Assembly: GCA_973895155.1 (NCBI GenBank)
Contig: OZ316892.1
Location: 15,616,861-15,680,860, forward strand
DNA length: 64,000 nt
Source: Marsupella aquatica
Taxonomy: Eukaryota; Plantae; Marchantiophyta
Direction of reading: 5' to 3'
Shown: positions 28,372 through 54,669 of the stretch, piece after piece
How the letters are laid out: each line of letters starts with the position of its first letter
Numbering within the stretch: position 1 is the stretch's first letter
Program-made: the position numbers and the translations under genes
Notes under the pieces: model-generated
The model's database searches: none
Told to the model about the DNA's origin: nothing
The model's input: the letters and a program-made list of their open reading frames with translations, nothing else

Positions 28372-28789
28372 CCTTGAGGGCTTGTCGATCCCCCGACGTC
28401 TCCTCGACGCCCATAGGCTGAACCGCTCACGCTTGTGGTGTATCGGCCACTCCGCCGGTCTGAGTCAGCGCGTGTGAGTGGCCGCTTCCTTAAGTTCGTT
28501 ATACGGACCCGAGGGAGGGGCCCCTCCACGCTCGTAACCTGGGTGTGCGAATAGTGACCCGCCGCCAGTCCGAACCTGAATTCCCCCTTATTGCCTAATG
28601 ATGTCCTACCCATAATGATTACCTAAATACTGTCGTTATGCTAATAATAGCGGCCTAAGACACTCCTAACGCGCGTACTAAGCGCAGTTAGATCGAATCA
28701 CTCATTAACCGCCGTACTGGCGGCGTCACACTACATTAACACTTAGCTCCAGCATTGCTGACTCCAACGCCAAGCTCCCTTATGGTTCA

Positions 28790-31169: not shown

Positions 31170-31379
31170 TTAGTTTCCACCCTAAATTATTCTCGGTGGG
31201 GGTCTCTGAGATGGACTCGGGTCATTTGGGCAACAGTATTTGTACTCGGCGAGCCTCTCTAAGATGGTAGATTTGTACGGACACGCGATCCATACAGAAT
31301 TACATCGTAAAAACATTGAAAAGTACTGTACGATCAGTTTTTGCATGCACTTTTGGGTTCATCCTTGTATTTTGGCGAG

Positions 31380-31986
31380 GGTCTCTGACATCGAATGTGG
31401 GATAGAACCAATTTGGGTCCTTCATTTGAAACGGAATACCCTTAATTTCATCTCGGAGAGGGTCTCTGAGAGACATAGTGTATGTTGTAGCTAACCCTTT
31501 GAAACTGTTAACAGGGTCCACAAGTGGTGTCATCTGGCCAAAGTACGCCCACGACTCCATCTCGGAGAGGGTCTCCGAGAGGCTGGGTCTCATTTGGCGA
31601 CCTTTCTGACCTAATATGCGATTTGGGAGAACTGCTCTCTGGCCACTTGGGGCACACGGCTCCATCTCAGAGAGGGTCTCCGAGCGATTGGGTTGCAATC
31701 TCGCTTCCCTTTCCACCCAAGATGCGATTGACAATTTTTGCCGTCTGGCCGTTCGGGCCACACCACTCCATCTCAGAGATGGTCTCTGACATCGGATGTG
31801 GGATAGAACCAATTTGGGTCCTTCCTTTGAAACGGAATACCCTTAATTTCATCTCGAAGAGGGTCTCTGAGAGACACAGTGTATGTTGTAGCTAACCTTT
31901 GAAACTGTTAACAGGGTCCACAAGTGGTGTCATCTGGCCAAAGTACGCCCACGACTCCATCTCAGAGAGGGTCTCCGAGAGGCTGG
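31380..31986. repeat. ~205-bp direct repeat with 401-bp offset
   Basis: 31380-31586 matches 31781-31986. Confidence 0.9.
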
Positions 31987-33105
31987 CAACCTTTTTGACC
32001 CTAGAGGCATACTTTTCTACCGTGAAGTTTGCTAGAGTGTTGGACTTTTTTCTACTTCTCATATTTTACGCTAAACCCTAAACCCTAAACATAATTGGCC
32101 GCCTTTATTAAGTCTCCTCCAACAAACCCTCCTTGATCTTGTTGACTTGTGCTCTTCCCCCTTCTCTTAACCCCAATTTCCTCTTTTAGTTAAGCCACCC
32201 AAATGATAATGCATGTGGGCAACCATTTCCTCTTTGAGTTGATGCACCGAGATGTTGACACATCTCAGTAGGCCTCGGAATAAAATGACAGCGAGGGTCT
32301 CCTACATTTGGACTCATTTGAGTTGTAGGCCGAAGTCCCTAATTGTACCCTAAATGTACCCTAAACTCTCTCGTACTAATGGTGGTCAGTACTCGCGTTA
32401 GCATTGTGTACTTTCTTGTTTGGCCGTTAACATGTACGTATTGAAGTATAGTTAGGATCTCCCATATCTATTGCGTACTTTAGTGTTGTGCAGTACGGGC
32501 GGTATGTTATTCCTTGAAGTGGATGTCATTCCTTCCTCGTCACTCTTCCACGGTGTGACACCTTAGGTTTGGCGCTCGTCTTTATCACTAATCCCCGGAC
32601 CTTCTCACTCTGCCTCACTCTTTTGCGTCCCTTACTCGTTCGCGCTCTAATCCGCGCTCTTCCTCAATCTTTGCATATTGGTCTGTGCAATCTCTCACTT
32701 CTCCGCGCTCACATCCGCGTTGTTCCTACTCTTCTTTAGTCGTCCCACTCACGGTAAACTCTCCTGTGCAACCCTGTTACCGTGTCTACTAGATTGCGTT
32801 GGTGTTTTGAGGCAGTGAGCGTGTGGTAGCTTCTCCGTGAGCGTTTAGGCAACATTTTTTTGTGAGCATTTGCGACAGTGATTTGCCGTGAACGTTGGTG
32901 ATTCTCTCAGGTTTTTCTCTTGGCTCCCCCTTTTTCTTGATATGTCAAATCCATTTGTAGATGAATCAAATGTGTGAGAGGCTGGACCCCGCGTATCCTT
33001 GAAAACTGGCTCTCTCGGCGGGGCTCGCTAAGATATTGTCAGGTTTATAGGTCGTGCTATTGCCGAGTAATAACTCTTTCATTTCTCATGTAATCTAAGG
33101 TCAAA

Positions 33106-36100
33106 ATGCCAAAGAGGAAAGACTCGACTGGAGCTGGACCTGCCGACAGCCAAACTTCTCAGCGGAGTAAGAAACCACGATCCAAGCTCGGGGGGTTAAC
33201 TAAGTGTATATTTTGGGGTACCACGTGCAATCCTAGCCTAATATAAATAGACCTATTTTATAAAGAAAATATTCCAAGATGTTTTGGGTTTTTTATGGAA
33301 ACCACAGATACACAGCCTGGTCCGCAATTGCTTCTGAGTATTCGGATCAATTGCAATACCATCTGTGCGTCAAATTCTCTCTTTTGAACACTGGGAAGGA
33401 CGGATTCAAGAAGGTTGAGCAAGCAATGCACGCTCTCAACTCATAAGTACTCTCATTCGTGTCTTTTTGCAAAATGTGATTACCCGTTTGTGTAAACCTT
33501 GTGTGCCATCTTGGAGAGCCTCTTTGAAATTGCCGCTATGAGTACTATTTGTCATTTTCAGGATAAGTGCAACTGTCGTGAAGACGTCCTGGTTTAATGA
33601 CGCTGATCGGGTTGCAAAGCTATTGAACACTCCATTGGAGGAGTACAGTTCGCTCATGTCAAAGGAGACAATGGAGGCTTTCATGAAGGCCCAAAATCGA
33701 GGACATGGGAAGACTTGGTACTCGAAGAATATGACAAAAGAAGCCGCTGTGTACATCATGTCTTGGTCAAACATTGAAGCGGGACGAATCAATATCTCCA
33801 AGGAGATGGCACAAGACGCAGCTCGTGGGCACCCGTGGAGTGTGAAGAGAACTGAGGAGGAGACGGAGGCAATGATTATTGTTGCATGCAAGGCCTGGGA
33901 CAACAAGTTCCCCAAGCTTGCGGCCTGCGTGAATCCAGCCAATGGAGACCAGTTCATGCCGGTATGTCGGCAGCTGTATCACAAGTTGTCAAAGGACGCC
34001 AAGCAGGGTGTGATGAATGTACAGGTTGGCTTGGACAGGGTCCGCTTGTTTGCTGGGGCTTGGGTAACTACAGAGTGCAGAGTATAGCTATTGAAAGCTC
34101 ATTTTGGAACGGAGGAGGAGAAGAGTATTTATCACCATCCACGTAGCAATGATGATGCTGCAATTAGATCTTGGTTAGCAGTCTGGTCAATGTGGTGTTA
34201 CATTGACCACGTTGGTTGTGTGATTTTGACCGATTTTGCTGCAAAGGCCTACCAAAGACAGATGTACCATGAGTTTTCCGGGATAGAGGAGGAATTTGCA
34301 GAGCTATACAAAAGGCTTTATCGAGCTTATGTGCAAGAGAAATCACTGAAACTAGGCGGGGAAATTTGGATTGACGGAAAGGCCACAATCCTGTTAAAAG
34401 AATTGTGGAAAAAGTGAACAAAGAGGTGTGTGACAAGATTTCTAATCAATCAGGAGAACATGAATGCATCCGTATTGAAAGAGCTGCCATGGGCACTCAC
34501 ATCTTGGATGGAGCCGAAAGGGAGCCTTAACATGTATCCATGTGATGGCCAAATTCCTAATGGCAGAGTAGTCTGCAATTGGGAACGTCAAAACTGCCCA
34601 TGGTATATGGAATACCGTGACTGGAATACTTTTATCGATGACGCTGAGAAGGAGTGTCCAATGAAGCTGAAGGACCAACAGGAGCCTACAAATTACTACG
34701 ATATTACCAAGCTACGACAATTGATAGACTCTATGCCCCAGGCAATAGCGTTGGAGGCCATAATCCCAATGGACCCAACCTATGATGGGAAAAAGGCCCG
34801 AAAGGAAGGAGGCGAGAAGAAGGTCAACAAGGAACAATCCGCCGAGGCCAGTCAGTCAGATTCTATAAGCACTCCAACAAAGACCCCATCAGGTATTACT
34901 CAATTCCTTTCGAATCAGGTGGTGGCTTGCATTGGAAAAAACCTTGGCTGGGTTGGCGAGGCTCGCCGAGATTAAGTGTCCGATCTAGTCCAGATGTCGG
35001 CGAGGCTCTCCGAGATTAAGTGTCTGGTCCAGTCCAGATGTCGGCGAGGCTCTCCGAGATTAAGTGTCTAGTCCAGTCCAGATGTCGGCGAGGCTCTTTG
35101 AGATTAAGTGTCTGGTCCAGTCCAGATGTCGGCGAGGCTCGCCGAGATGAAGTATTAGTTGAGTAATAAGTTGCTTGCATATAATGAACCCGATCTTGGC
35201 GAGCCTCGCCGAGATGTAGTTGCCATCATGAAGCTCATCAATTTGCATCCTATGCAGGTCATGCAGAGATCCAAATGGAACCTGGTTCTATCAAGAGCAA
35301 GGGTGTAGAGCCGGCTACAAGGCCAGCAATTGAGGACGGTCCAGGGGTTTCATAGGGTCCAAGGCACAAGGATAAACAACCAATAGTTGAGTTGGGTCTA
35401 GACGAGGCTCCACTGCAAGAATTTGACTTGCCTCCGCATGAGGCTCCTGAAGTACAAGATGAATTGGCTGACGAGCAACAAGGTGAGGATGATGTGGGTG
35501 AGCGAGAGGAAGAGGAGCAAGAGGAAGAGGACAAAGGACAATCCAAAGATGAAGGGCGCTTGTCCGATATCTCTCTTGTGCCTTACCGGCCACCATTACT
35601 GTCACGGCAAAAGGAAAAGGCCTTAAAAAGAAAGCAAACTAGGCGACCCAGAGCTCCCAAAGGGAGCCCAAGCCAAGCACGTGACAAGGAATTTCCTCCT
35701 CTTCCTTCCCCCACTGAGTCGCCTCCCCCGCCCGGCACTGGAGAGGTTCCGCCCACAACCATCCAACCTGACCCCACATTGGAAAATGAGGAGGATGAAG
35801 AGGCCCTTGGAGAAGAGGATAATACAGAGCTGGAAGGAGTAAGGCGTCCTTATGCCAATACCGTGTCTTCCTAGAGCAGACATATGTATTTTAGGTGGTC
35901 TCCAAATCTATTTACAACTTTTTTTGATGCGGCTAAAGAAGGTACCGAACCCCCTGTAGTTAGTAAATTGATCTCATGGTGCAGAAAGCTATTGTGGGAA
36001 GGTTTGCGTCAAAATGCCTGGAGAAAAGGGGGGAAGCGAGTGAAGACTGGTGCAGATTTAATTCTAATACATATGGGAACAGACACGCGAATGGTCGAGG

Positions 36101-36870
36101 GTAAGTCCACCCCGTTGTGGAATTCATTTCGGGAGGATGACTTGAACCGGGTTCAGGAGTTTGCTCGAGATGTCCTTGATTCCGAAGGACTGTTTGCCAT
36201 CGTGCACAGTGGTTTGCTTCGGCACTCAACTTGCATTTATGATGCATTAGTTTACGAGAATACCAACTGGGGGTTGAAAGAAAGCTTCTTTATCTGGAAC
36301 GACACACCCACCTACGAAGGTAGGACTGGGAAGCGAGTAATTCCCATCAATTACCTACTTCTTCATTTATTTTTTATTCCAATGACTTACTATCCTAAAC
36401 TGAGGAAGTCTGACCTCTAATTGACCTCTAATATCTCAAGCTAGACCTGTGGGGGTTTCAATCTGCTGTGGAGATATGCCCAAAGGACGATGTGGCACCA
36501 ATTAGTGCAGAGCTCGATATGAAGAGTAGGAATGGGCTAACAAACTATACATCCAAGAAGAATCAGGTTAACGATCCTTTTGCGGGCACATTGTTGCCAG
36601 CAACGCTCCAATGTATCATTGAATATACAACACACCTTGGGGCAACTATCCTCACTTTCAACGCACAGTTTGGGGCAATATTCAAGGCGGGTGAAAATTG
36701 CGGGCGGATGGTGTTTGGGACTGAATCCTATCCTCACTTCAGAACTTGTGCGCAAGACCAACTGGCACAACTGGTTGGAGTGATCTCCCCGGAGGAGGAA
36801 GAGGTGGTCCGTTCAAAAGCCAATCCAGAAAAGCACAAGAAGAAAAAGCCGGCAGTACTCCCAACAACAT
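33106..36870 (+). pseudogene. Multi-exon gene: ParB/Srx-like domain, helical region, acidic linker, beta-class N6A/N4C methyltransferase-like fold
   Basis: KMFWVFYGNHRYTAW (33276-33320). ORFs 33578/34091/34430 and 35392/35884 are in frame across single stops, and intron 34893-35257 keeps phase. ADLILIHMG...W...FARDVL..EG.F.I.H (from 36052) and LQCIIEYTTHLGATILTFNAQFGAIFKAGENCGRMVFGTE (36606-36726). Confidence 0.7.
34955..35148. repeat. Intronic tandem array, 44-bp unit x4 plus partial
   Basis: GGCGAGGCTC starts at 34955, 34999, 35043, 35087, 35131. Confidence 0.95.
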
Positions 36871-37095
36871 GTAAGTTTTCTGGCGTTTGATGTTGTTCAT
36901 TTCATATTTGCTTGCTCGTCGCAATGGTTGACAATAGAGGGATACAAGTCAGCGGCCTCGCCGATATGTATGCATGTCGGCTGACCTCGCTGACATTCAT
37001 AGTGTCTGGCCTCCTCTACAAGCGAGGGCAAGTCCTAACTTGAGATGCATGTTGGCGGACCTCGCCAAGATTCATTCCTCTACATGCAACTCAAG

Positions 37096-37893
37096 AAGAG
37101 TCATCTTGGCGGGCCTCTCCAAGATCCGTCTGAGGAAGAGTGATCTCGGCTGGCCTCTCCAAGATCCGTCTCAGGAAGAGTTAATCTCGACTAGCCTCTC
37201 TGAGATCCGTCTCAGGAATAGTCATCTCGGCTGGCCTCTCCGAGATCCGTCTCAAGAAGAGTGATCTTGGCTGGCCTATCCAAGATCCGTCTCAGGAAGA
37301 GTCAATCTCGGCTGGCCTCTCTGAGATCCGTCTCAGGAATAGTCATCTCGGTTGGCCCCTCCGAGATCCGTCTCAGGAAGAGTGATCTTGGCTGGCCTAT
37401 CCAAGATCCATCTCAGGAAGAGTCAATCTCGGTTGGCCTCTCTGAGATCCGTCTCAGGAATAGTCATCTCGGCTAGCCTCTCCCAGATCCGTCTCAGGAA
37501 GAGTGATCTTGGCTGGCCTCTCCAAGATCCGTCTTAGGAAGAGTCAATCTCGGCTGGCCTCTTTGAGATCCGTCTCAGGAAGAGTCAATCTTGGCTGGCC
37601 TCTTTGAGATCCGTCTCAGGAACAGTCATCTCGGCTGGCCTCTCCAAGATCCGTCTCAGGATGAGTCAATCTCGGCTAGCCTCTTTGAGATCCGTCTCAA
37701 GAACAGTCATCTCGGCTAGCCTCTCTGAGATCCATCTCAGGAAGTCATCTCGGCTGGCGTCTCCAAGATCTGTCTCAGGAATAGTCAATCTCGGCTGGCC
37801 TCTCTGAGATCCGTCTCAGGAATAGTCATCTTGGCTGGCCTCTCCGAGATCTGTCTTAGGAAGAGTGATCTCGGCTGGCCTCTCTGAGATCCG
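37096..37893. repeat. Intronic tandem array of ~20 units of 40/41 bp with a 121-bp higher-order period in its first half
   Basis: Unit AA(G/T)AGT(C/G)(A)ATCTCGGCTGGCCTCT(C)CGAGATCCGTCTCAGG; lies between donor 36871 and acceptor 37994. Confidence 0.95.
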
Positions 37894-38385
37894 TCGATCC
37901 ATGTCGACTACCTTCCCCGACAGATGCCTTCTTGTTTACGTCTATTTTGGCGCAATACATTATTTGATTGGATTTAAGTATAACTTAGTAGCAGTTCCCG
38001 ACAGGACTACCGAGTCAGCTACAGCGGAATGGGACAGCCAGGACAGACGGCTTGTCAAGCTCGCGTGGGAGGAAGCTTCGGCATATTTCTCGCCGGAGAA
38101 GTTAACCCTTCCGTGCTACCCTATTGATACCTATCATGAAGAAATAGTGCCTCGCTGTGTAAAAGAGAGAAAAAGGAAAACTCTCAAATTTGTTGATGAT
38201 AGGGCAAAAGAAGCTCAATCAGATGAGAGTAGCTCGGTAGGAAGTGACAATCTCCAAACTCACCATGTAAGTATAAGATTATCAAGCTCCAGTTCCGAAG
38301 AGTAATGTTTGAATGAATTTACCTTCATTGCAGCTCAGGAGAGACCTGAGAAACCAGTGAATGAGGGCTGACTCCCCGAGCAGGA

Positions 38386-39111
38386 GTGAAAGAGGTGGGG
38401 CTTGCAAACAAAGGAGTGCCCGCACAACAACAACCATCCAAATTTTTGGCGATAGTGAAGAAGGCATTGGACCCCAAGGCGGACCAAAAAGAGGTCATAG
38501 TGACAATCGAGGATGTGCACTTGACGAGGGCACATTTAAAATGCTTTCGGCCAAAAAAATGGATCACTTGCGACGTCATCAATGCTTACATTGCTTTACT
38601 GGAACAAAGAGCACAAACCCTTCATAAACCCAAGGCCATGTTATTGCCAACACATTTTTACCAAGTGATGACAACTCCGGAATATAACTTCAACGCAGCG
38701 TTGGCATATTGGCGGGGCATTCAAATGTGGGAGCACGAGTACGTTTTAATCCCCGTCTACCGGCCAAAATACTGGGTACTAGTTGTGGTTGATACTGCCT
38801 TGCGGCAACTGCATTTACTTGATCCGCTTGTGCCCAAAGCACAGGATGGCACAGAAGTGTTCAAAGTAGCTCAGTTTCTTTCGGACCTCTCCATCTTGCG
38901 GGGTCGTACCTTGTTATGTCCATTAGAATGGCCACGCATTTACCGAGATAACATTCCAGGTCAAGGGGATGATTACAATTGTGGTGGATATATCATTATC
39001 TACATGGAGCATATTTTTGGAGGCGGCGTACTGAACTTTGACCCTGCACTTATAGACATCATGCGGCAAAAGATTGTTGTGGACCTTGTCTGCCAGACAA
39101 TTACCCTATAG
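38386..39111 (+). CDS. Ulp1/SENP-like (C48) SUMO protease domain, catalytic His apparently changed to Tyr
   Basis: LKCF.P..WITCDVINAYI.LL, THFYQ, YVLIPV....YWVLVVVD, LLDPL, Q..DYNCG.Y. TAC at 38770-72 stands where CAC (HW motif) is expected. Confidence 0.88.
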   Translation: MKEVGLANKGVPAQQQPSKFLAIVKKALDPKADQKEVIVTIEDVHLTRAHLKCFRPKKWITCDVINAYIALLEQRAQTLHKPKAMLLPTHFYQVMTTPEYNFNAALAYWRGIQMWEHEYVLIPVYRPKYWVLVVVDTALRQLHLLDPLVPKAQDGTEVFKVAQFLSDLSILRGRTLLCPLEWPRIYRDNIPGQGDDYNCGGYIIIYMEHIFGGGVLNFDPALIDIMRQKIVVDLVCQTITL

Positions 39112-39552
39112 AGAGGATGGGAGATGGAGACGCAGCCTAGTGGAATTTAGTTCAGAAAATTGAGATAGACAACATCGTTGTAAAGTTCGGTACAAAGCTT
39201 AATAAAAAGTCAGCGAGGGTCCAAACATTCTTAATGTGGCTCCTATTTGATATGCTATGTTGTACACGTTGCTGGGTATGTTTTCATCTTGGCAAGCTCA
39301 GCCGAGATGGAACAACACTCCAAGGATATCTCAGAGAGGGCGCCAAGATGGTTAGAAAGGGCACCAAGATGGTCAGAGAGGCAGCCGACATTACTAATTG
39401 TCCGAACCAAAACAATGTCGGAGTGGACGCCGACATAGGGTTTGATTGTGGGTGTGAATTAAGTCCATGTCGGCGGCGTCGCTGAGTTTCGGGCACAGAC
39501 TGATATTAGTGACTGATGAAAGTCACTGATAACTGATGAAGTTGTGTACCTC

Positions 39553-42500
39553 CTTTCTGGTCAACAAGTGGTGACGGTACTAGAATGCCTGAATTGATAT
39601 CTTCTCACACAAGGATTTCTAGATTGTCAAATTGATAACTTCTCAATCAAATTTAGATAATTACTCATGGAAAGGAAACATTCCATTTCGACTACTGGAA
39701 CAGCAGGAGTTCAATGCTACCTAGAATCCATATGAGTAATTCAAATCAAAATCCAACTTCAAAGTATGATGGTAAAATTTCTAAGTATTAACTTCTCAAC
39801 AAGAGGAGTCTGTAGTTCTACTCACAACAGGTCAAGGCTCAACAGGAGCACCTGAGGAGGAGCTTCTATGCTTCCAACAGAAATTGAGAACTAAAGGAAA
39901 ATGGATCTGTGTTCCTCCTAACATGCACAAAGGAAGGATCCCAAAAGTCACAAAGTGTCATTTCCGGTTTTCGTGGAAGAAAAATTAACTGTCAATCAAA
40001 ATTCAGAAATGAGAACAAAGGAAAATCCGGAAATGGATGTAAGACAAAATCTGGATTTTGATTTCCGGTCCTACTTACTAAATCCGGATTTAGATCCTAG
40101 TCGGATCCGGAAATTCTAACTAACTAACTAAAAGCTACTAATCTACTGAGCATCATCAACTACATCTACTCTAACTGACTCATGTGTAAGATCAATTGGA
40201 CTAGCAGGTTTTAGAGGAGGAGATATAACTAAACTCGCAGTTGCCTCCAAGTCCTTCAAATCAAAAGGTGTTCCATGTGTTGGACTAATAGTTGAAGGTG
40301 ACACTGACGGAAAATGAAACTCAACCTTCTCAAATCCGGGTGGGGTGCCTCCTGCTTCATTTTGATCGCGCATCACCGGATATGTTCCGGATTCCGAAAT
40401 CCGGATTCTGGCAGGGGTCAACATGGACTTCGCATCCGAAATCACTATCTCCATCTGATCAAACGCTCCTGTGATCTTCTTGGCAAAGCGGTTATTGCAC
40501 TCAATAACCTTGACAAGGGTGCCTGGGTTGGCTGTCGCTAAATACTTATCTATCAGGTTGGCTTCCAACAAGCCAAGGGCTGGTACATGAATAGCCTCCT
40601 GAACACTGGTAACTACAGCATTCAGTTATTTCTGGATTTTCAGGTGTTCCTCCAACTTCTTCTGTGCAACATCCAACTGGTCCACCAAAGAGTCAATCTT
40701 CTATCTGTCCTTGAAGGCCTGATCCTCCAAGTCCCAGATCCGCTTCTTAGCCTGACTCTTAATCACCATGTCCAGAGTGGAAACGATGACAATTGGGCTG
40801 CAGTTGAGCATCTCAGCAACCGTCCCAACTAGATCCTCAAGTTGCTTCATTTTTCCGGTCGCACTTTCCATGAAAGTCCGGACATGCTCCAACTCTGCTG
40901 ATGCCGTCCACTTCAAACTAGGGATCACGCCCGGAAGACTTCCTCTACTTTCCGGTCTCCGGATAGGTTTCGGATCTTCAACAGGATCCAGTTCCGGACT
41001 CTGCACAAATCTCTTCTGCGTCCTGAGAGGTCGCACTTCCAGAACCGGTTCTTCTTCTGATTCAGTCCCCTCAGACGGCTGTCGATCCGGATCTCCGAGT
41101 TGAGCCAACATGGCTTGATTCTCATACTCTTCCGCTACTTCATCTGTAAGAATTTGGTCCATCACGTAAATATTGGCTAGATAGCAAGAAAGGGATGTGG
41201 GGGTCTTCAAATGAAGATTTCGGACCTGGTTGGCTATAACTTCCTCCAAAACCTTGGCCCAGGAAATCTTCTTCTCCCCTATGTAAGAAGCAGCAATCGT
41301 ATTTCCAATCCGAATTGTAACTCGTCAAGGCTTGGCAGGGGAAAGAAGTGGTAGCAAAAAGGACAGAATGTCGTAAAACTCCTCATTACAGCACTGGGAC
41401 ACCTTCCAACCGTCCTTCGGATCCACTTCACCATCAAAATAGTTATCCGCAAATTCATTCTTAGAGGTCAGGAAACCTTCTCCCTTCAAAGGCACATCCA
41501 AAAGCAAAGAGATAACTGCCGCGGTCCACTTTTTCGGTTTGGCTTTGATCGAATCCGGAAATTCCAAAGCAAGGGTCGTGCGCTTTCGGACCTCCTTCAC
41601 GAATATTGCACTCTGGTATCCCCATGGCAACTCCATCAACTTTGCACAACCCATGGTCTCAAGGTTCTTTTGTAAACGGTCCTTCCGTGCCAAATCCGTG
41701 GGAATCTTCGGACGCAGTGGCTTTTCATTCACAATCACTGTCCGCTCCTTGGTCGTCCGCTTCGGTAGCGTCCGGATTCCGGATTTGTCCGGGGCAAAAT
41801 CCGGGTCCTTTCTCTTCACCATATTTAGGAGATGGAGAGGAAGAATCCAAATTAAACTCCTTTCACAAAATTCCGGAAATATCAAATCTGGAAATTGAAA
41901 TCAAATCTTCACTTCCCCACTCAATCGAACGATCACCCACTTCCCCCGTAACCAGTTCCTCACGACTAATGCCTCGAATCGGCAGCCTGGTTCGGCTCTA
42001 AGCTCTCCTGTGATTCCTTGCGAAGGATTTCTACAGCAGTTTGGTGGTGTGAGGAATGCTCGGTCTAGCGTGGTCTTAAGAACTCGGTCACCAACTTCCG
42101 GTCTCCGGTCGAACGTCAGACTTATGGTTTTAATATTCATTCTCCCACGCCTTCTCGCATGGCTCAACGGTGTCGTTACTTAAGAGATCCAAAAAAAGGT
42201 GCTATCTGGATATTTCCGGATGCGATATTGCAAAGTAGTTTGTTATGGTCTTTTCCGGTCAAAGTATACTCCGTTAACCACTAAAAGTTGAAAATTTTCA
42301 AATTTTTTTGTACTTTTTAATTTCATTATTTATAACTATGGTATCACATAACTCCCTCCCCAACCGGTGCAGTGCCCTCGCAAACCATCAAGAGGTGGAG
42401 TGATATTTCTTAACCCGAGATCCATTAACTCGAGTTAATAAAACTTTGCCTTGTAAATCCTCCAACTGTAATGAACCATTAGAAAATATCTCCCTTACCT

Positions 42501-42775
42501 TGTAAGGTCCAAGCCATCTGGTATGAAGCTTCCCTGGAAATAACATGTAACGATTATCAAAAAGCATAACCAAATCACCTGGTACAATCTTCACTTCTTT
42601 AAGCTTAGAATCATACCACTTTGCACGTCCCAATTGTTGTTTCTCGGTCTCAATCAAAGCATAATGGCGATCTTCTTCTAACTTCTCCAAATTTTGTAAC
42701 CTGATAGTCTGACTTGACTCCTCATCCAACCGAGTGGTGTCAGAAATCCGGTAAGTGGGTACTTCAAATTCCACA
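39553..42775 (-). mobile_element. 3' part of a second non-chromovirus Gypsy: integrase tail (42775-42388), PPT, and putative 3' LTR from 42348
   Basis: GDLVMLFDNRYMLFPGKLHTRWLGPY closely matches the integrase tail of the full element; GGGGAGGGAGTTA|TGTGATAC lies 40 nt after the stop. Confidence 0.85.
40143..41822 (-). pseudogene. Accessory ORF (~560 codons, frameshifted) downstream of the PPT of the second Gypsy
   Basis: MVKRKDP...LETMGCAKLMELPW...DPKDGW.V..C....L.FLLPLLSPAKP, followed by 41249-40701 and 40571-40143 with coiled-coil character. Confidence 0.75.
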
Positions 42776-44139
42776 CACAAAATATAGATGAGAGCGTCCT
42801 GTGGCATCTTGTGTGTGAACCATGACCCCTTTCTCATCTTTTTTTGGATTGCCTCAAACTTTACCATGTTTGCGCTATCAATGAGTGGTTTGTAGTGATC
42901 CAGATCACGCAACAAAATTTGGGAAATTCAAGAAGGCTCAACGACTGCTTGTCCAAGCCTGGATACAATGAGAGGTAATTAGCAGCGCCGGGCACAAAGA
43001 TCAGGGAATTGCCACTCTATGGTCCAACATATTTAGCCCAAAATCAATGAGAGCTATACAAGTAGTTAATGAATGTAACTTACTGGTTCACGGTGTGCAT
43101 CGTCGCCTTGAGCTCAACCAGAGAACCTCTATCGCCATTGAAATTGACGCAAATCACACAAGGATGATACTTCAAGTTGTTCGGATTCTCCCTGGTGACA
43201 ACTGACCAGGAGTACAATCACTGATTTTTGTCAAAGACACAAAACATTTTGTATTTTAGAATGTGGAATGTTGGATTTGCATCACACTCTTCCTTGAACT
43301 TCTCATTCTCTACGACTCAGATTGGATCCCAAGAGTCCTGGATCTCGCTTGTGCAGATTTGAGGAACCCCATCGGCATTGGCAGGCTGAACATAGAAAGG
43401 CATTCCAATGCGTGAGCTCGGGGGGGTCACTATATGGAGGGCCATACATCGCATGCGACGTTTTAGGGTTTGACCCCCCCTAACTTATAAGTGAAAAATA
43501 TTTTTTTGCGAAGCCCTTTCTTTCTTTAAATTTTGTCATTTTTATTAAAAAACCCCTAAAAACTTTAAAGAAAGTATTTTTTGCAATTAAATAGGCCTAT
43601 GTGTTCTTTAAAGTTGACCAGTCAATAAAACATGCCCTATGTGTTCTTCCACCAAACTTTGGAAGTCTTTCGCCACACCCATTTAAATGGGCCTATACTT
43701 TGTCACACGTGATGTGCCATTTCCGTGGAAGTGACCCCCCCCCCCCCGAGTGCGCAAGTTGTACCCTGTGACACAAAATGATCCTTTCAACTTGTCAATT
43801 GACGCGCTCTCTTTTTGCAATGTTTGAACAACCTCCATGGGGAGAAATCTACAAAGAGGAATTTGAGGAGGCTCCTTATCGAATCCTCAGAATTCCTTTC
43901 CAAACAATAACACATGCTTCAAGATTACCTCATCCATGGATAACCCTACGTTGCTGACTTCACCCCATGGCACCCTCCTTAGGGTCCATTCTTTCTCTTC
44001 TCAACCTCGAGAAGGGCTGCGTGGATTTAGCTTTGGAATTTGTTGAGGACGCAGTCGATCGGGTGACGCGACGGGTGTAGATTGAGCCAATGAACAAAGA
44101 CTGAGAGGACTTGGAATGACCACCATCAGCCTTCCCCAT
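42776..44139 (-). pseudogene. ParB/Srx-like accessory gene, copy A (3'-truncated, MITE-interrupted)
   Basis: SQSLFIGSIYTRRVTRS; FYVQP; SWDPI*V.ENEKF..EC.ANP; KMFCVFDKNQ*LYSW; DLDHYK..IDSAN..KF....KGSWFT.KMPQDAL.YILC, all aligning with 52471-53560. Confidence 0.8.
43417..43750. mobile_element. MITE with ~40-bp imperfect TIRs CTCGGGGGGGTCACT and 8-bp TSD
   Basis: Flanks TGCGTGAG / TGCGCAAG (both derivable from TGCGCGAG by CpG decay); removal restores GYNSRIGMPFYVQP. Confidence 0.85.
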
Positions 44140-46463
44140 TCTTGTATCACCCAACCAAAAGATGCTAAAGAGCGGGGCTTGACCTTCCAACACTGTCGTA
44201 CAAGACGTGCAGTTCTTGGGACAATCACGCCTCAAATTTACGAGAGCAATAAAGGACACACGCACACACTTGGGAAACACGTACAGTCCAAGGTATGTGC
44301 GCTTAAGTCGACTAAATTATCTACAAAGAGGGATCCCAACCTTGTATTAAGACACCGATACCTTCGACACAGCCAGCGGATTACAACGGTCAAGATGCTT
44401 GAACCATGACAGATGGCATTTCATGATTGGCCGTTCATGGCAAACAAAAGGAGAACGGTTCCGTGAACATCAATCTACTGTAATGTTATTGTTGGCAAGT
44501 GACAGTTGGGAGCAATACAGTGTTAATAATTCTCTCTAGCGCTAGTACAAAACATACACTCAACATACAACCAATTTTGACCTATTTTGACTAGGGTTCG
44601 GCACTGGTATGGAATCCATACATCTGCATTTCCAATTTTGTGATAGTGTTGAACAATAACTTATAATAGCGCTCGGCGCTAGTATCAAGAGAAATCATTA
44701 AATCAGACACTAAACATAGGTAACACATCTGCATTGCCAAATTATGTGACGGAATTGTTCAATAGCTTATAATAGCGCCTGGCGTTATCAAATTTGTCCA
44801 GAAATGGCTCAAAGTTTGTTCGCATAGACATAAAATTAACAACTGAAGTATTTGAGTTTAGGGCCCATCTCTTAATAGCACCGAGTGCTATCAAAATCAA
44901 TTTTAAGATTACACAGAATACAAAACTTTAAACAATTCTTTGTTTCTCAAAATAAGGCCGAGCGTTGTTGCAATTATCAACAAACAACAAGTGTTTCCAA
45001 CAATTTTAAATAATTGTTATTGTTCACGTTCACAATTACAATACATACACGAGAGTACAAACGGAAAGCAACACCGTTGCTGCCCTGGGTTCCAGCTGAA
45101 AAATGAAAAACTATTGGTCTTTTTGATTAAAAACACGCAAACTTCGATATCAAAAGGAACGGACAAATACCAAAACTTTGATATCAAAAGGAATACAATT
45201 AGGAACATTTTGGAAACTGTAGTAATCCGATGTGAGGTGAGCTACTGGCAATCATTTCCTATTGGAAAATACATATGGAAACATGTACCATCTAACTTGC
45301 TACATCCTCCAAGTGGCCCAAAACTCAAACTAAACGATGTGGTGAAGGGCAGTCAGTCATCCCACCAACTCGGCTTGTACACGTTAGAGTCGTCGTTGGA
45401 GTTGCTTGACCCATACCAAGAAAATCCTTGCCTGCTCGGAGATGAGTCCCCGCTCGAAGAAGGATCACTCTCCGTGGAGGATTCCACATCGGAGAGATCC
45501 CTACATGGAGTGGCTTGTCTCGGAGGTTTGACTGCAGTAGGGGCAATATATACTCCCCGGGGGAACAGAAGACGTGCCACTCCAATTTGGAGGATTGGAT
45601 CCTTCTCCACGGCCCGTAGGTGGCGTTGCTTTAGTCTTTGAGATTGTCTTGCCCTTGGCCGAGATCAGAACCATGGTCCTCTGTGTAGTCGGCCACGGTG
45701 GTAGGTTGTTCAACACGGGGGTCTCACGCTCACTATCACTTACAACAACGGCCTCCTCCTTACCCTTTCCTCGTGGAGGTGCCATTGAAACTGATCAGGC
45801 GATGGTAGGACTGAATAAAAGGACCAAAAGCTAACAAGAACCACTACTCACCACGCCGCTGACGTGCAACAAGAACTTGATGCCGTCTCTGCCCAGAACA
45901 CAAGTCCTAAAATGAGACTTGGGAGCGAGAACTTGTGGACACTGAAGAATTATAGGAGAATGAAGAGATATGAGAAGAATGAGGAGATATGAGGAGAATG
46001 AGGAGATATGAAGAGGTAGTCCCGCACTTTCAGTTTGTGTACTGACTTTCAAAGATGCTTCCTTCATCAATCTTTTGAACCGCAACGGTTTGGATACGTA
46101 TAGATATACAAAATAACTTCACGCGTGTGAACTTGATGACACGTACTGTACCGCGTCGGCTCTATATGACTTGGATACCTTTTTATTAATTGTGAAATAG
46201 GTAGCAACAAGCGCTATTATTATTGACCATCGCACTCCTCACCCAAGAGTGTCATCATATTGCTTCCAGAGGTAGCGTCAGGCGCTATTAACTTCTAACC
46301 CAAACCCAACTGTTGTTAAGACGACAAAATGTCATTGATGCAGTGCGTCCAAATCTATAACGAATCCTCTATAGTGAGAATGGAACGTTTACTTATTTTC
46401 CTGATCTCATGATAAACATATTTCATTTGGAGCGGGGCAAGTCCATTATCCCGTCTTGAAGCC

Positions 46464-49400
46464 ATGGCTCACAATATTGTTGTCACAATTCCCATGCCAG
46501 AATCATCTGAAACAAAGCAAGTTTTGGAGGAATATTTGGGAGTGAGATTTGATGTTTCCAAGGAGTCTATTCTTGCAATCTCATTGGTGTGTGTTAGTTC
46601 GGGGGAGACTCCAGTTTTCTACGATGTTGTTTGTGGACAAAGATATTGGACTATGGCTGCCCAGAAGGAATACAAAGTCTTTGTCTTAAGTGCGAGATTT
46701 TGGGACATGTAGTGCTCGTCCTCCCACATTGGGTCAACTCAATGTCATCAAGCTTTTGGAGAGTTCTAGAGATGAGAAGCAAGCCACAACTCCTATTTTA
46801 GGGAAGATTCCGGTTTACCCATTTGAGGTTAAAAAGGAGTGTAATGTTGATCGAGAAAAGATGGTGCCTTTGATTGTGTACCGGCAGAGTGCCATGGATA
46901 CAATCCTGAAATCCAAAGGGCATAGTGAATTATCTCGATTTATAAGGGTATGGCACGCGTGACAGTAAACAGGAAACAGGTTTACTGGTACAAGCAAAAA
47001 ATTTCTTGTTACCAGCAAAAAGTTATTGTTACCAGGAAAAATAACCATGTCAAAATATTTTCTAGAAAGTCTCATTTTCCAAAAAACTTTAAGTTACAAC
47101 ATTTTTTGGCTAGCTTTGGGCGCTAGCAAATAAAATAAATCTTTGAAAAAAAACCTTTTTTTTCCCCAATTTTTTTTTTTTTAAATTAAAAAAAAATTAC
47201 CACTCATTTTCCTATTACCAATTTCTGTTTTCTGTTACTGTTTACTGTTTCCTGTCGTTTGTAAATACCCCGTTTATAAGGGGAAATGATTTTGTTCATC
47301 ACATAGTTCCTAGTCTTCCCACATCGTACAATGGGAATGTGGTTTTTGAGTTACCCCTGGTAGACTGTGTGAATGCAAAAGGGGAACGTTTGAAAGATAT
47401 GGATTGCAGTAAGGATTGTTTTTACTGGACTTGTATTGTGAAAACATCTTCAAATGTTCTCCCAAAGAAAATGTGGGATTTCGAGAAAGTTCAGTGTACT
47501 GGATCGTTGCAATGTCGTAATAATGCTTATCCATGGTGGAAAGACAACAAGTCAAGAAACGATGATGTGTGGGCAAGAACCCCAAAACTTTCAGGCCCAT
47601 TCCAGGTTGGGGAATTGATCTCTGAAGGTGGAGTTTGTCACTATTGCTCTGAACCTTTGATGTGCGTTGAGGCATGCCCTGCTCTAATGTTCTACATGTA
47701 TCCATCTTGCAAAAGTTGATGTAAAGTCTTTGCCCACAGGTCATGACTTGCTGTTCATAAGGGATTTCACAATCATCCCAGTAGACGGGTTTGGTTGAGG
47801 GAGGCAAAAAAGGTAGCCAAGTTGCATTTGGAGAAGGGATTCATTGCAAACCCCATGGCAACCCCAGTTGGGATAAAAAACTTTGCGACTGAGACATTGA
47901 CAAACACATTTTGTGAGGCCTCTGTTGAAGAAATCTCTCTTGAAGAAGAGAAGGAAATTTGGGAGTCCTTGATGGTCGTCGCATCTCCTTAGAAGTTTGC
48001 ATCCATGTTAAGGAGTGTCCGTCAAGATCAGAAGGGGAAAGGGGAACTGGAATTTCTTGTCAGGATGCAAAAGTGTATCCGACTGCCTTTTCTTCAAAGG
48101 TTCTTGCTCCCTGGTCAAGGCTGCCGAGACGAGAGTGCTCATATCTTCAAAATGACCATAAAATGTGACGGGTGTGGTCTGGACTTGCTCCAAAGAATGA
48201 AATCTGGCGGGTCATTAGAGGGCTCATGGGTAAGTTTTGACGTTATGCATCAAAGCATGGCAGATTGGCTTACTTTTAGTGCCCATGTATATGATCATCA
48301 TTACCCGACACTTTGCACAATATTCACTTGTGAGCTAAAGGCCAAAGATGCAAAATCTCTTGAGAGAGCCTGGCGGTTGATGCTTGAGGTTGCCGATGAA
48401 AATGGCTTAAAAGATGTTACAATTTGGGGATTCATGGTGGACAATGCTTAGGCTGGTTGGAATGTTGTTTGAAACGTGTTTTTTGACGGCCTCCTCAACC
48501 CAGAGCAAGAAAGATCAGTTGCCTTCCATTTTTTCCAATCTTTTCATCGTCATTCCTGAGAAGGTGTAAAAGATGGAAAGCACGGAGAGCACAAGGAGAT
48601 GTGGGATCGTCTTTGGAACGTGTCAACTTTCTTGAAAGCATATCAAATCTTGAGGGAAATTGATGACTGGTGGAGGTCCGACAATTGTCACTCCTGAGGA
48701 AAACTTGGATGCTCCAAGGGTAGTTGTCCTGGTGGGTTGTCCGATGGAGACAATGGGGGAACTTCATAAGACTGGTGAGTTATAGTCTATTCTAGGATAC
48801 ATTGGCTAATTAATAGCGTCTGGCGCTACTGAAACATGTATGAAACTGCAAAGTTCTTCATTCCCAATAGTAGTGCCAAGCGCTAGTAAGCCATTTGGAT
48901 TGTGATTGATATTAGGGCTTACACTGTGATAAATTGTACTTTGAATGGAAACATACCCATCAAATATGATATACTAGCGCCTGGCGCTATTGTTAATTCA
49001 CTTTTATTTCCACTAGTGGGGCAATTTGCGATACATACTAAACACTTGCGTACAATGTTTCAGAGCAAGAGTGCCTAAGAAGCTGGTATGATTCCAAACT
49101 ATACTGGATCAAAATCTAGGCATGCTGGAATGAAAGCATGGCAACAGAAAATAAGGTTGGTCTATTTGAAGGATGCAAAATGGACCAAAATAGGGTTGTT
49201 GCTCAAATTGTTGCTTATACTACATACAAAAGGGGATTGAACAGAGGAACTGGCCCAACTATTTTTGAGCTTGCCTTCAGATCGGCGGACCTGGCGGGGT
49301 CACCGCATCTCTTTGAGGAAGCCACCAATCTTCTCCTATCAAATGCTGCAGAGTTTGATTTGGAAAGAAGCGTTCTATTGAATGGGGATGTTGTAACGCG

Positions 49401-50595
49401 ATCGGTGAAACAAAAAGGACATGCAACTGGGAATGTCTTGGCACAAGACTCGCACAGGCATGATACCATCCTTGTTACTTCACCAAATACAAAAGATTTG
49501 AAAAGAGAAACCTCCATTCCACTAATTTTGAGAAAATGTCTTCCATGCCTTCAGCCGGTGGAATTGATGGGGTCCTTAATTTGTCCGAAAGTGATGATTC
49601 TAAAGAAGTTGTAATCGTTGACACTCCTTTGCATCAAGCGACAAGATCTTTTGTTCCTCCAATGACCCCTGCAAGAACCCGTTGAGACTGCATATTGTAA
49701 TTCAGTTTCCCCAACAGAAAGTGAGGTACCTCTCGGTGCCTGGCAGTTGCGTCGGACCTCAAAAATGGGGTGCGGGTCCAATGTGTAACGAAACCCTTGG
49801 CCGGGGAGGGAGTCGTGATGAATGTCAAAATCAAGTGAAGAAGGTTGGGTTTCCAAATCCAGATGGTGTTGTTGCAATTTTCGTGAGAGGATGCAGAATG
49901 TTTAGGGGACAACCTTATAACAATCAGATATGGTTTTGCCCCAACAACGATTGTCACCAAATCACAACAAGGAGAGGAGTCTCAAACATTTTGAATGTTC
50001 CTTCACATCTCCCAATTGCCAGAGGGACCAATATTTTTGCAGCAGAGATTCAATTCTTGAAAGAACGAGGACCTATTCTCTCCAAAGGCCGTGGAGATAT
50101 GAAATTGAAGCACCGTTGTCATCTGCGTTATAGATTGATGTCAATATTTTCCCAAAGAGGATCAACCTAACTGACCCAACTATGAGGTGCGCTTCAAGGA
50201 ACGGGAAGAAATGCTTGCAATGAGTGCAGCTTACCCCGTCCCATTTGAAGGAAATGAAGCCTCTGAAAAATAAGTCATGAGCGTCATTGGTCAGAGAGAG
50301 ATCACATGCAACTGGAAATGCGTTGGGGAAACAATTTTGTATCCGGACCCATGAACATGATTGATCAGTTGCCTCTTATTGGGTCTAGATATGTTGTTTC
50401 CCATGTTGCTCCTGCAAGGATTTCTATCGTCAGCATACTTATCGGAAGCCTTACATGCCTTGTAAACATGTGTATTGGGTGTTCAAGAATGTGTTCAAAC
50501 TGGATGTGCACGATTTGACATTATGTAGCCAGCCAATTCTAACGTTGGGAGAAGTCCGTTATATACTTGATAGGAAATTGGGAACAGGAATTTAG
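46464..50595 (+). pseudogene. MULE transposase pseudogene (copy A): N-terminal region, Cys/His WRKY/GCM-like finger, DDE core, SWIM finger
   Basis: C.GSLQC.N...CHYC...C..ACPA...H.G.HNHP (47490-47780); SFDVMH...GFMVDNA*AGW...FHFFQS (48230-48545); CCSCKDF...PCKHVYWVF (~50403-50485); intron ~48775-49062. Confidence 0.82.
46946..47270. mobile_element. MULE-derived MITE (GGGTA...TACCC) inside the transposase gene
   Basis: TIRs with ACAGTAAACAGGAAACAG; flanks GATTTATAA / CGTTTATAA (7 of 9 identical); removal restores SRFIRGND; carries one TAGC..GGCGCTA palindrome (47111). Confidence 0.8.
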
Positions 50596-51049
50596 ACTAT
50601 TGTTTTAACGTTGAACAGCTAGAATCATGGTTTGTCTTTTCTAACGGGTAGAAGTGTAAGTTTTTTAAGTGTTGTTTTCGAAGCATAATTCCATACCACC
50701 GCCGGGCGCTAGTAATGTTGACTTGTGTTTTGCCTTCATAATTGGTTGCAATGTATTTGAGTCATTGTGTGAAATTATCAAAAATATTCCTATGTTGTTG
50801 TATAGTGGCGGGCCCCACCACAATGTTGTCCAAACAATTATTGCATATATGGACGCTAAATACCATGAAGAGAAGAAACTAAAATGCATACGATGAAACA
50901 AGAAACTTGTATGAGAAAACAGAATCTCGTACGAGTAAATAGATACGCTCTGAATACGAGTAATTTGTTTACTCATATGAGACAAATTTGTGCTCATACG
51001 AGGAAAATTTTGCTCGTATGAGCACATCTATTTGCTATTTGTTGTCACG

Positions 51050-51666
51050 GTGGTTATATCCATCCCTAGACCTGTCCATGTCGCGGAGGCGGGATCCTTT
51101 TGAAAGAATTCCTGGCGATGGAGGCAACTCGAACACAATATTCCCATTGTACTTTGGCGGCAAACAAGGTACTTGTTCATGTCAAAAGTTTCCACCCGTA
51201 ATGAACCTTGAAAGTTCACTGGACCCAGTTGACTTGAGCAACGCATCCATTGCACTTCGTCGATACACAAGCTGGGAATGCAACAATGGCATCTCCTCTT
51301 TGACCAAGACCACGTTAGGGGCTGGAGGCTTCATAAGAGGGATCCCTGGTGGCTCCTCATCATTACTATCATAAAGCCACATCCACCAAAGCCCTTGTTG
51401 GGGATTGTTGCAACCACAACGGAGTATCACAATCCAGCATTAAGGTGCCAGAATCTCTCTCCGTCATCAATATAAAAAAGTGCAACATATTTTGAGTCAT
51501 CTTCTTTGTTTCTCTCCTGAACAATTTCCTCAATATAATTCATGCGTAAATCAAACCTTCCACTGAGGTAAACCTCACTAACTTGCTTGTACGTTTCAGC
51601 CACAAAGACAGGAATGGAAATAATATCACCGGTCAACAAACGGGTAACAACAATTGACTGAGACAT
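51050..51666 (-). pseudogene. 5' fragment of a MULE transposase (copy B)
   Basis: LVYRRSAMDALLKSTGSSELSRFITGGNF...LP..YNGNIVFELP....KG.RL.DMD.S.D matches 46870-47420. Confidence 0.82.
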
Positions 51667-52470
51667 CGCAAAAGCCTCTAAAAAAATGAACACAAGAAAA
51701 TTATGAATCAAAATTCTGTGGGCGAGGAATGTTATTGATCCTAGCTAACAATTTCCAGACACCGTTATAATAAGACAAACACACCACCTGGCGGACAATC
51801 CTCCAACACCATAAATTATGTATTTTGTCGTTATATCAACAACATTTACGATTACAAACAATGCTTTTTGGGGGCACCTTTATTTTTTGAAAATCTCAAT
51901 TATTAAATAGTGTCTGGCGCTATTAAAAACAAACCAAAATTCAAGGGCCACTAGAAGTCAATCCATGTTTAGCACTTGGCGCTAATATTGGGTTCATTCA
52001 GATTCTAATTGTTTATGAAGGTAAACTATAAAATATGAGTCTCAAAACGGTCTTAAAAGGCAATGGTTTTTGATAGCGTCGGGCGCTAGTTTTGGTATAC
52101 CGACAGTATTTGAAAAATGTGTTTTAGTTTGTTGTTAACAATGAAATTATGCCATATTCCCATATCTTAAGACCATATTGTGTTACCAATTGATGTGAAA
52201 ATATAGTCCATTTAGCCTTTGGGTTTTGTGTTCATCAATACATTGATCCTCTTAGGTATTGTCAAATAAAGAAATGACAAGTGTCAAATATCCAGGGCAA
52301 GAGTTGACTTTTGTTATTGTATATCTTACGCTCTGCACTCTGGATTCTATTTAGTTTCCCTGTGCAGTGGTTATTTGTACAAGAAAGGAGGTGTATGACG
52401 GGTTTGTGCCGTTTGCAGTACGGTACAAACAAAGCGGTTGTCAGTCATTTCTTTCCCCCTTGTGCGAGTG

Positions 52471-54660
52471 ATGGACCCTGCCTTGTCCTCCTCTCAATGC
52501 TTTAGTGGAAACGGACAGAAAGAGGTCGTTCCTTTGCAAAAATCTGAGTGTTTTTTTTCAGGATCTGTGTATGGTCGTCGAGTGACCAGGTCCATTACTT
52601 CGCAAGCTCTTGAAACACAACCGCTATTACATTTCCAAAGAGCATGAGAGGGGAGATGGATGATCTTGATTTGTATGCTGTGGGGGACTACGGGGAAACG
52701 TTGCTTACTGTGTATGATGTGATCTCCAAACACATCATGTCCTTTGTAAAATATTTTTGAGGACACGACAAGGATCCCCCAAGGATTCCAATGTGTTGAT
52801 TACTTCACATGGAAGTAGTGCAAACATTGCAGAAGGGAAAACCTTTGATCAAGAAGTTGAAGGACTCTTTTCATAGCACGGGTTACAATTCTAAGATCAA
52901 CATGTTGTTTTACGTCCAACCAATAGATTTGAATGGAGATTCTAGATTTGTACGCCAGAGATTCGTGCTTCATGGGATCCAATTTTGGTTGTAAAGAATG
53001 AAAAGTTTGGGGCAGAATGTGCTGCCAATCCTGACTTACCATCTTGCAAGATAAGATGTTTTCAGTATTTGATGGTAACCATTGATTGTACGCATGGTCC
53101 ATCGTAACAAAGGAAAATCCTGATGATGTGAAATATCATCCTCACATACTCTGCACAATATTCAAGGAAGAAAAGGGGTCATTAATTGAGATTGAGGCAA
53201 CAATGCAAATTGTCAACCAATAAGTGTCTCTCTCAACATATGTATCTCTCTTCAATTACATTGTCTCTCCATTATAATTCCCATCCACTTAATTCCAATC
53301 TTTGGCAAAGTTTGACTAGCATTGGGTGCTACTGACTCATTTATTTTTCTTCAGGCTTGGGCAGGCAGTGTAACCCTCTTGGATACTTGACGCAGGCCGA
53401 ATTAACAGAATTCTATCAAATGATCTAGATTACTACAAGTCAAGCATCGATAGTGCCAATTTCAAGAAGTTTGGCCAGGTCATGCAGAAGACTCAGAAGG
53501 GATCGTGGTATACAAAGAAAATGCCTCAGGAAGCGCTTTTGTACATCTTGTGTGAAAATAAGATCAAGTCTTATTCTCGACAGTTTAAGATGGTTCTAGA
53601 GTTTGTTGCCGCTCAGGGTACACCTTGGTCTCTGGGAGAGATTTCAAAAAGGCACGTTGCAATGATGAAGGAGGCAACCAATGATTGGGCAATAAAGGTT
53701 TCAAAAATAACTCCTTTGTTATGCCCCGCCTTTGAGGATTTATGCGTACGTGCGCCAAGATGTACCCCCTGACAGAGAAGAATAAACGAGAGAAGAAACC
53801 CGATGCGGTTGTTTGTACAATGGATCAAGCAAGATTGTTTACAATCATGTCTATCCTCAACCCCAAGCTGAGGAGTATTCTTCTTGTTGCCCATTGTACA
53901 CCAGAGCTGAGGAAATAGTTCTTTCATCCACAAAATGTTAGTGACGATCCCGTGAGGCAATGGTGCCATACCTGGCAAACTTGGAACAATGTGGAGGGAA
54001 TCGCTATTGGTATGCTGCACACCTCCCTCTGGCAGGTCAATGATCAATATAGTCCCCACCAATTGATTGAATGTAGGAGTGGGATTGTGACTCATTTGAC
54101 TCGCTTATTGAAATAATCTTGAATGATTTTAAGAAATTTGGAGACACAGTGAAAGGCAAGTATTTGAATACAATGTGGCCTTCCAAGTATCCCAATAAGG
54201 TTGACTACATGCTGAAGAATCAAAAGAGGGCCAAACAATATCTCTATCGTTTCTTCATGCACATGGAGATTGTGAAGCCAAATTACTTTTGGGCTTACCG
54301 AGTTGCTTTCCATAAGTGGATCATAGTTGCCGAACGAGACATTCTGGCTAAGGTGAATTCAATGTATCCTGCTAAAGGGTGTCTTCCGCTAAGAAAACTG
54401 TCGGAATGGGAGAGAATTCATTGTCCGTGGTATTTGGATACTAACAGTTGGGACTCTCCGTTTGACAACACTGAGAAAGATGCATTCAATAAGCTCTCCA
54501 AATCTCAAGTCCCCCCCCCCCCAATTTGTGTCTGACATGAAGCAGGGAATCAAAGGCGATGTGAACCAATCAACGGCCGAATTGCAAATGGTATGCAAAA
54601 CTATGGTTGTTCATGTTGATCAAAGTCACAAACCCAGAGCCAAGGCAAAAACCAAAGGCA
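52471..54660 (+). pseudogene. ParB/Srx-like accessory gene, copy B (3'-truncated)
   Basis: KMFSVFDGNH*LYAW at 53053-53097 (TGA from CGA gives DGNHR); intron 53220-53354; WERIHCPWY matches WERQNCPWY of copy C. Confidence 0.82.
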
Positions 54661-54669
54661 TCACGAAAC

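Follow-up and report, generated by a model that had tools for sequence, protein, structure and literature searches.

A gene that accompanies the transposase of a divergent Mutator-like element (MULE) in a liverwort is supported, by sequence comparison, as a selected long-term passenger of that element rather than a chance capture, and its product is predicted to adopt a ParB-like fold. The gene was studied in a repeat-rich, 64,000-nucleotide stretch of Marsupella aquatica DNA (contig OZ316892.1, positions 15,616,861 to 15,680,860 of the forward strand; hereafter the window), which contains two decayed copies, A and B, of a two-gene Mutator-like transposon, with A sitting inside the transposase gene of B. 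A palindrome is dispersed through the non-coding DNA of both copies, and the interpretation developed here, to which we give about an even chance, is that the accessory gene is a conserved passenger whose predicted ParB-like product binds these palindromes and keeps the element active against silencing.

A first-pass annotation of this DNA had described a ParB-like gene and a MULE transposase arranged head to head in two independent copies. ATG codons were found at the four claimed starts, 44139 (-), 46464 (+), 51666 (-) and 52471 (+), and the divergent layout was confirmed, with spacers of about 2.3 kb in A and 0.8 kb in B. As had been proposed, the copies are diverged at the protein level (60% identity over 200 codons for the accessory gene and 62% over 438 codons for the transposases), the N-terminal motif F.GS.Y.RRVTRS occurs in both accessory proteins, and the intron position is common to A and B; it is also shared by a third accessory gene copy, C, and a GT donor is present only in A. 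The genes of A and B are distributed as follows.

42776..44139, minus strand: A accessory gene, 5' part, with the ParB-like exon, an intron at about 42960-43077 and the start of the helical exon
14020..14606, minus strand: A accessory gene, last stretch, with a tail match at 14110-14285 and multi-copy depth
46464..50605, plus strand: A MULE-type transposase pseudogene, with two catalytic-type Asp motifs, an FH motif, an intron at about 48775-49045 and a C-terminal SWIM-type finger
52471..54665, plus strand: B accessory pseudogene, with the ParB-like exon, an intron at about 53222-53355 and the helical exon, ending at an unrelated repeat
51062..51666, minus strand: B transposase, 5' part, stopping where A begins
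9770..13559, minus strand: B transposase, 3' part, in frame once A is removed, with a SWIM-type finger

All genes of A, B and C are broken by stops, frameshifts or insertions of miniature inverted-repeat transposable elements (MITEs), and the 5' part of the A accessory gene ends at 42776 against an integrase fragment of a long terminal repeat (LTR) element.

A and B are separate insertions of two diverged subfamilies, and to that extent the description as independent copies stood; they do not, however, lie side by side, A being nested in B. The nesting is established by the terminal inverted repeat (TIR)-like ends of A, its flanking 9-bp duplication, the in-frame halves of the B transposase and contigs of sibling copies. 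The ends of A are short and decayed, with 29 of 47 letters equal without gaps and 74% likeness over 47 letters, and they start with G, as is typical of MULEs; five related ends were compared. The 9-bp target-site duplication agrees in eight of its nine letters, the empty site is present in sibling contigs, and the contig of another copy starts at 13569 with a different flank. The two B transposase halves read through in frame and could be aligned to the A transposase across the junction. Sibling-copy contigs cross from one half to the other (two in run X4 and three in X3), and each loose contig end has its best match in the opposite half. Of the boundaries proposed for such elements, TIRs and a 9-bp duplication were thus found for A; the right TIR and duplication of B were searched for in the window and were not found. 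At the left end of B, the empty LTR site was present in four of four runs (listed for three), and another B copy starts at 9093.

13569..51061: element A, whole span (37.5 kb), inserted in the B transposase, with about 28 kb made up of foreign DNA nested in it, namely the LTR element at 14634-28730, further remnants of LTR elements and copy C
13560..13568: 9-bp target duplication on the left flank of A, ATCCCTGGA
51062..51070: its counterpart on the right flank of A, ATCCCTAGA
9093..9190, plus strand: left TIR of B, which is inserted into LTR sequence at 9092/9093
46947..47271: MITE of A's TIR family inside the A transposase, with a 9-bp target-site duplication and one degenerate palindrome at 47111
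43415..43745: high-copy MITE-like insertion in the A accessory gene, with a related insertion at about 10599-10885

The 325-bp MITE in the A transposase also has an empty allele, contigs skipping 334 letters (325 + 9).

Judged from sequence features, the transposases of A and B are a divergent MULE, given two Asp motifs, a D/CxxH motif, a SWIM-type finger, 9-bp duplications and the placing of a relative with PF10551 clusters. The motifs FDVM, FMADNA and D[AC]FH were found in all five long transposase relatives and CxC..CxH in A and B, and the core of relative P0140 was grouped by Atlas with PF10551 clusters at 0.92. No MULE match was obtained with the hidden Markov models of Pfam or NCBIfam, the third catalytic residue was not located, and the transposase protein search yielded no Riccia proteins. 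Pfam named neither ParB, MULE nor methylase on the window pieces, and the labels used here rest on relatives, models and Atlas, which support the ParB-like fold and the MULE class proposed by the first-pass annotation at modest strength.

The view that the second gene is a stable accessory gene was borne out by purifying selection, by 114 homologs and by head-to-head linkage in distant relatives. Between A and B, codon-position identity in the accessory gene was 0.74/0.79/0.39, and the ratio of nonsynonymous to synonymous differences per site (pN/pS) was 0.29 (0.22-0.37) over 200 codons in locally aligned blocks, which is not neutral; the transposases gave 0.36 (0.30-0.42) and a shifted-frame control 1.31. 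Because synonymous divergence (dS) is saturated in the accessory gene, omega is not given. The 114 homologous proteins were found with a profile built from the A, B and C accessory genes; the named ones belong to two liverworts, Riccia sorocarpa and Calypogeia fissa, and many unnamed relatives end at the position of the intron shared by A, B and C. Riccia sorocarpa has many annotated ParB-methylase paralogs (P0012, P0119, P0125-P0137), some auto-labelled trimethylguanosine synthase.

Linkage was assessed in a metagenome scan comprising 72 loci, grouped at 90% identity into 41 clusters, from which 28 clusters with less than 8 kb upstream and 30 with less than 8 kb downstream were dropped for the respective counts. 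An upstream transposase, always on the opposite strand, was detected in seven of 13 clusters with the window-seeded profile and in eight after one round on the loci, the other five having none. A downstream transposase was present in one of 11 clusters (Fisher p 0.033 against 7/13 and 0.013 against 8/13, values to be read in the light of clusters that may derive from few hosts and so not be independent). Loci L070/L072 showed a weak same-strand transposase match downstream, in a cluster too short for the downstream control. The linked transposases are only 16-26% identical to those of A and B in profile columns, which indicates that the gene pairing is old, and the two genes co-diverge overall (Mantel r 0.56, p 0.003).

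The accessory product is predicted, with modest strength, to consist of an N-terminal ParB/Srx domain containing the sequence DGNHR, followed by a helical region. Fold models were made for relatives P0069 and P0017 (pLDDT 84 and 77). The best ten Foldseek rows were all ParB/KorB/Noc, none of them significant alone, and the best eight VIA rows were all of the ParB/Srx fold (Z 6.5 to 4.4), the next, unrelated row having Z 3.6. The top VIA match was KorB (Z 6.5, root-mean-square deviation (rmsd) 2.7, 92 residues aligned), which reached Z 7.7 with the longer model. The helical part of that model aligned weakly to the DNA-binding domains of ParB, KorB and SopB (6s6h, 1r71 and 3mkw; Z 5.2, 4.4 and 4.3, 110-135 residues, rmsd 4.5-6.6). 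The GxxR-type motif DGNHR is nearly invariant in relatives and is broken in all three window copies. Neither Pfam nor NCBIfam named the ParB domain, the best match being a DGQHR domain (E 0.001, in one of four proteins); sequence searches of the PDB gave no ParB match, M.RsrI at E 0.97 being the sole result for C, and a word-based search of long proteins with the C helical exon gave no matches. A TRS word that follows an Arg, Thr or Val and lies in a disordered region of the N-terminal 150 residues was present in 13 of the 16 relatives checked.

The intact Riccia relatives have a methylase-like domain at their C-terminus, and no such domain remains in A or B. The C-terminus of the full-length Riccia protein P0119 (1207 amino acids (aa)) resembles PF01555 at E 5e-5, and the PF01555-type domains of P0117-P0120 scored E 1e-5 to 5e-5, all below the cut-off, with motif IV before motif I. 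An intact beta-class N4-cytosine/N6-adenine methylase carries the motif (D/N/S)PP(Y/F/W), for example DPPY. In the Marchantia N4-methylcytosine (4mC) preprint TSPPY is given as the N4-cytosine motif. Of 14 long relatives, 11 have D-[LM]-P-[TS]-G as their catalytic motif, none of these 11 having the aromatic catalytic residue, and no motif was found in the other three. The catalytic position read DYPE in locus L005 and DIPE in L006; both loci were read by eye, the Riccia methylase profile having no metagenome-locus match at E <0.001. In copy C the catalytic motif is lost and the S-adenosylmethionine (SAM) motif is degenerate.

The A/B subfamily probably had this domain as well, since the C-terminal tail survives in A and the tree places relatives with a methylase to either side of the two copies. 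A profile of the region behind the methylase, built from seven proteins after the likeness had been noticed by eye, had its best window match in the left arm of A at 14110-14285 (E 0.0013) and its next behind the methylase of C (E 0.14). In a quick tree with an unsettled fork around A, B, C and Riccia, methylase-bearing proteins (C, Riccia, L005 and L006) flank A and B on both sides. The earlier statement that both copies are cut short misses the nesting, the B transposase continuing at 13559-9770. The methylase-like domain is missing from what survives of A and B, and the A accessory gene retains its tail.

The candidate binding site is a 15-bp palindrome that recurs in both elements.

9533..53331: dispersed palindrome TAGCGCC-N-GGCGCTA, located in both A and B within spacers, introns and the non-coding terminal regions
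44140..46463: A divergent spacer, with five palindrome sites (44667, 44773, 44876, 46202 and 46273)
51667..52470: B divergent spacer, with three palindrome sites (51908, 51970 and 52074)

Fifteen sites were found with at most two mismatches and 19 with at most three; ten simulations gave 0.0 against the 15, the word itself having been taken from these data. All 15 sites are non-coding, non-coding sequence making up 35% of the 16.5 kb of element DNA (p 1.6e-7, with hand-drawn exon limits), and none occurs in the remaining 47 kb of the window. The A and B spacers have almost nothing in common except these palindromes. No palindrome was present in the first 50 letters of five element ends, and the A/B word was found in none of the 72 metagenome loci. 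Other palindromes, often in tandem units, occur beside C and in L010 (16 sites), L024 (10 sites) and L019, L022, L023, L044-46 and L067 (four to six each). In L010, at 1755-3960 and 5679-5835, 16 near-perfect copies of GGTGCCG-N4-CGGCACC are spaced about 138 bp apart, both within a ParB-like gene and upstream of it.

Copy C, an accessory gene of a third subfamily nested in A, has a palindrome of its own.

33106..38250, plus strand: copy C accessory gene, with no transposase adjoining; ParB-like motif at 33276-33443, helical exon to about 34900, methylase-like part at 35950-36810 and weak tail at about 38075-38250
31451..31980: six upstream copies of the palindrome particular to C, TCTCGGAGA-N3-TCTCCGAGA
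38365..39111, plus strand: Ulp1-family protease open reading frame (ORF) behind C (PF02902, E 3.7e-11)

Tandem arrays with units of about 169 bp and 40 bp flank the C gene at 30299-31200 and 37084-37895 and contain words like the C palindrome. The Atlas rows for the last ORF of C are PF01555 clusters (0.93-0.94), and the element to which C belongs may include the Ulp1 protease ORF as a third gene.

In the mechanism that we propose, a dimer of the accessory protein would read the 15-bp palindrome as ParB reads parS, with one word per subfamily. The dimer would carry a C-terminal methylase-fold module without the catalytic aromatic residue, and this module may serve as a shield that binds DNA or methyl bases instead of working as a normal enzyme. 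The outcome would be a VANC-like, sequence-specific anti-silencing in which the protein's own subfamily is protected or activated; the analogy with VANC is favoured over that with mudrB because the palindromes are non-coding. A further-reaching version, which we consider doubtful, is that an old land-plant MULE clade took over the ParB-parS principle, a clamp loading on the subfamily palindromes and spreading while the dead methylase fold shields the DNA from cytosine methylation, which would make this a second plant anti-silencing system with an origin separate from that of VANC. Several observations weigh against the proposed role. The fold scores are modest (best Foldseek E 0.064, all VIA Z <8), the matches to DNA-binding domains fall among unrelated helical rows, the models cover P0069 and P0017 and not the broken window genes, and the methylase domain is missing from the surviving parts of A and B. 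Among the eight metagenome loci alone co-divergence was not significant (r 0.30, p 0.14), five of the 13 testable clusters, like copy C, have no transposase beside the gene, and several of the 20 loci scanned were at background for palindromes, for example L042, L055, L064 and L065. The MITE, which would need only transposase sites, retains one degenerate palindrome.

That last palindrome can also be taken to suggest that these sequences are transposase sites and that the accessory protein aids transposition in another way, as maize MURB does in binding MURA, an explanation that we regard as unlikely. MURA indeed binds MURB (PMC12973397), and in the case of AtMu1 the transposase by itself suffices to bind cognate copies and activate them (10.64898/2026.08.24.746577). 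The AtMu1 peaks are, however, at the TIRs (10.64898/2026.08.24.746577), whereas here the outermost 50 letters of the five ends are free of palindromes and most sites are in spacers and introns; moreover, the C palindrome surrounds an accessory gene without an adjoining transposase. It is decidedly improbable that the full-length protein is instead a catalytically active methylase of the N4-cytosine or N6-adenine type, marking the element that encodes it, while the ParB part would serve to load or activate the enzyme. The PF01555 likeness of P0119 and of the last ORF of C would fit such an enzyme, as would the SAM-type motif DFAGGWG retained in Riccia; active self-modification has likewise been proposed for an Ectocarpus element (PMC12477816), and in phages ParB homologs serve as activators of a DNA-modifying enzyme (PMC13229309). 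Yet no relative with the D-[LM]-P-[TS]-G motif has the aromatic residue of DPPY, L005 and L006 also deviate from it, C has lost the catalytic motif and has a degenerate SAM motif, and the PF01555 scores stay below the cut-off.

There is very little likelihood that the second gene represents a captured fragment evolving neutrally (a Pack-MULE), its layout having arisen by chance or recent duplication. All window copies are pseudogenes and five of 13 clusters lack a transposase within 8-10 kb, as might be expected of such fragments, but selection was purifying with saturated synonymous sites, the orientation was the same in eight of eight linked clusters, and the named homologs are many Riccia paralogs with no single-copy host gene among them. 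Capture was thus refuted in substance by the transposase-like pN/pS and the consistent linkage orientation.

Other features of the window were recorded beside these elements. The LTR retrotransposon at 14634-28730 inside A is near-intact, with 4-kb LTRs that are 97% alike and a 5-bp duplication, and lies within a piece of an older LTR; a diverged LTR of its type begins at about 62611. A multi-copy repeat with inverted ends (54666-55800), inside which contigs skip 988 letters, cuts the B accessory gene. The ORF at 58360-59454 (minus strand), intact over 364 codons, contains hydrophobic stretches, had no Pfam match and is probably a host membrane-protein gene, and an element with inverted arms of about 290 bp, 86% alike, lies at 61347-62163.

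Since the gene and the transposase that partners it are now defined in liverwort-type DNA together with a precise candidate site, and Riccia has near-intact relatives, the proposal comes down to simple work on binding and the methylome. If true, it would describe a programmable, sequence-specific anti-silencing protein derived from a prokaryotic clamp.

Transposon genes combining ParB with a methylase are already known from the published accounts of algae, as one gene in Ectocarpus or as separate genes in red algae, and ParB-HTH methylase fusions have been noted in chlorophytes and chytrids (PMC4738411). The literature search found no land-plant description, although the supplements of the Ectocarpus and Bostrychia papers might include land-plant relatives, and the available text of the Marchantia 4mC preprint does not mention ParB. 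The accessory protein of Sola1-1_Ec32 in Ectocarpus is a 1104-aa ParB-like and N4-cytosine/N6-adenine methylase protein encoded on the strand opposite the transposase, and it has been proposed to bind the element that carries it and to modify that element (PMC12477816). Riccia P0119 has the same two domains, as far as the description allows the two to be likened; the Ectocarpus element differs in having a Sola transposase and residing in a brown alga, as opposed to a MULE in land plants, and neither palindromes nor a degenerate catalytic motif are reported for it in the available text (PMC12477816). In PAG2 and PAG3, found in red-algal Plavaka and Mutator elements including a Chondrus Mutator, a ParB-like accessory gene lies beside inverted-repeat arrays, and parS-like self-binding has been proposed (10.1101/2025.02.11.637652). 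There, ParB is fused to a 2-oxoglutarate (2OG) oxygenase, the methylase is a separate SET-fused gene and the repeats form adjacent tandem arrays, unlike the A/B palindromes, which are dispersed through unrelated spacer and intron sequence. Compared with bacterial ParB, KorB and Noc, the accessory protein shares a predicted N-terminal fold, DGNHR as a GxxR-type motif and palindromic candidate sites, and differs in about 50 extra residues within the domain, no Pfam ParB match and no ParA partner. The VANC proteins of Arabidopsis VANDAL elements, as far as their described features go, are likewise products of a MULE accessory gene with family-specific short motifs in non-coding DNA, VANC21 binding such motifs within introns as well as in the non-coding stretches between genes and at the termini (PMC5735166); their motifs are non-palindromic 8-9-mers, whereas those of A and B are palindromic and belong to elements with TIRs.

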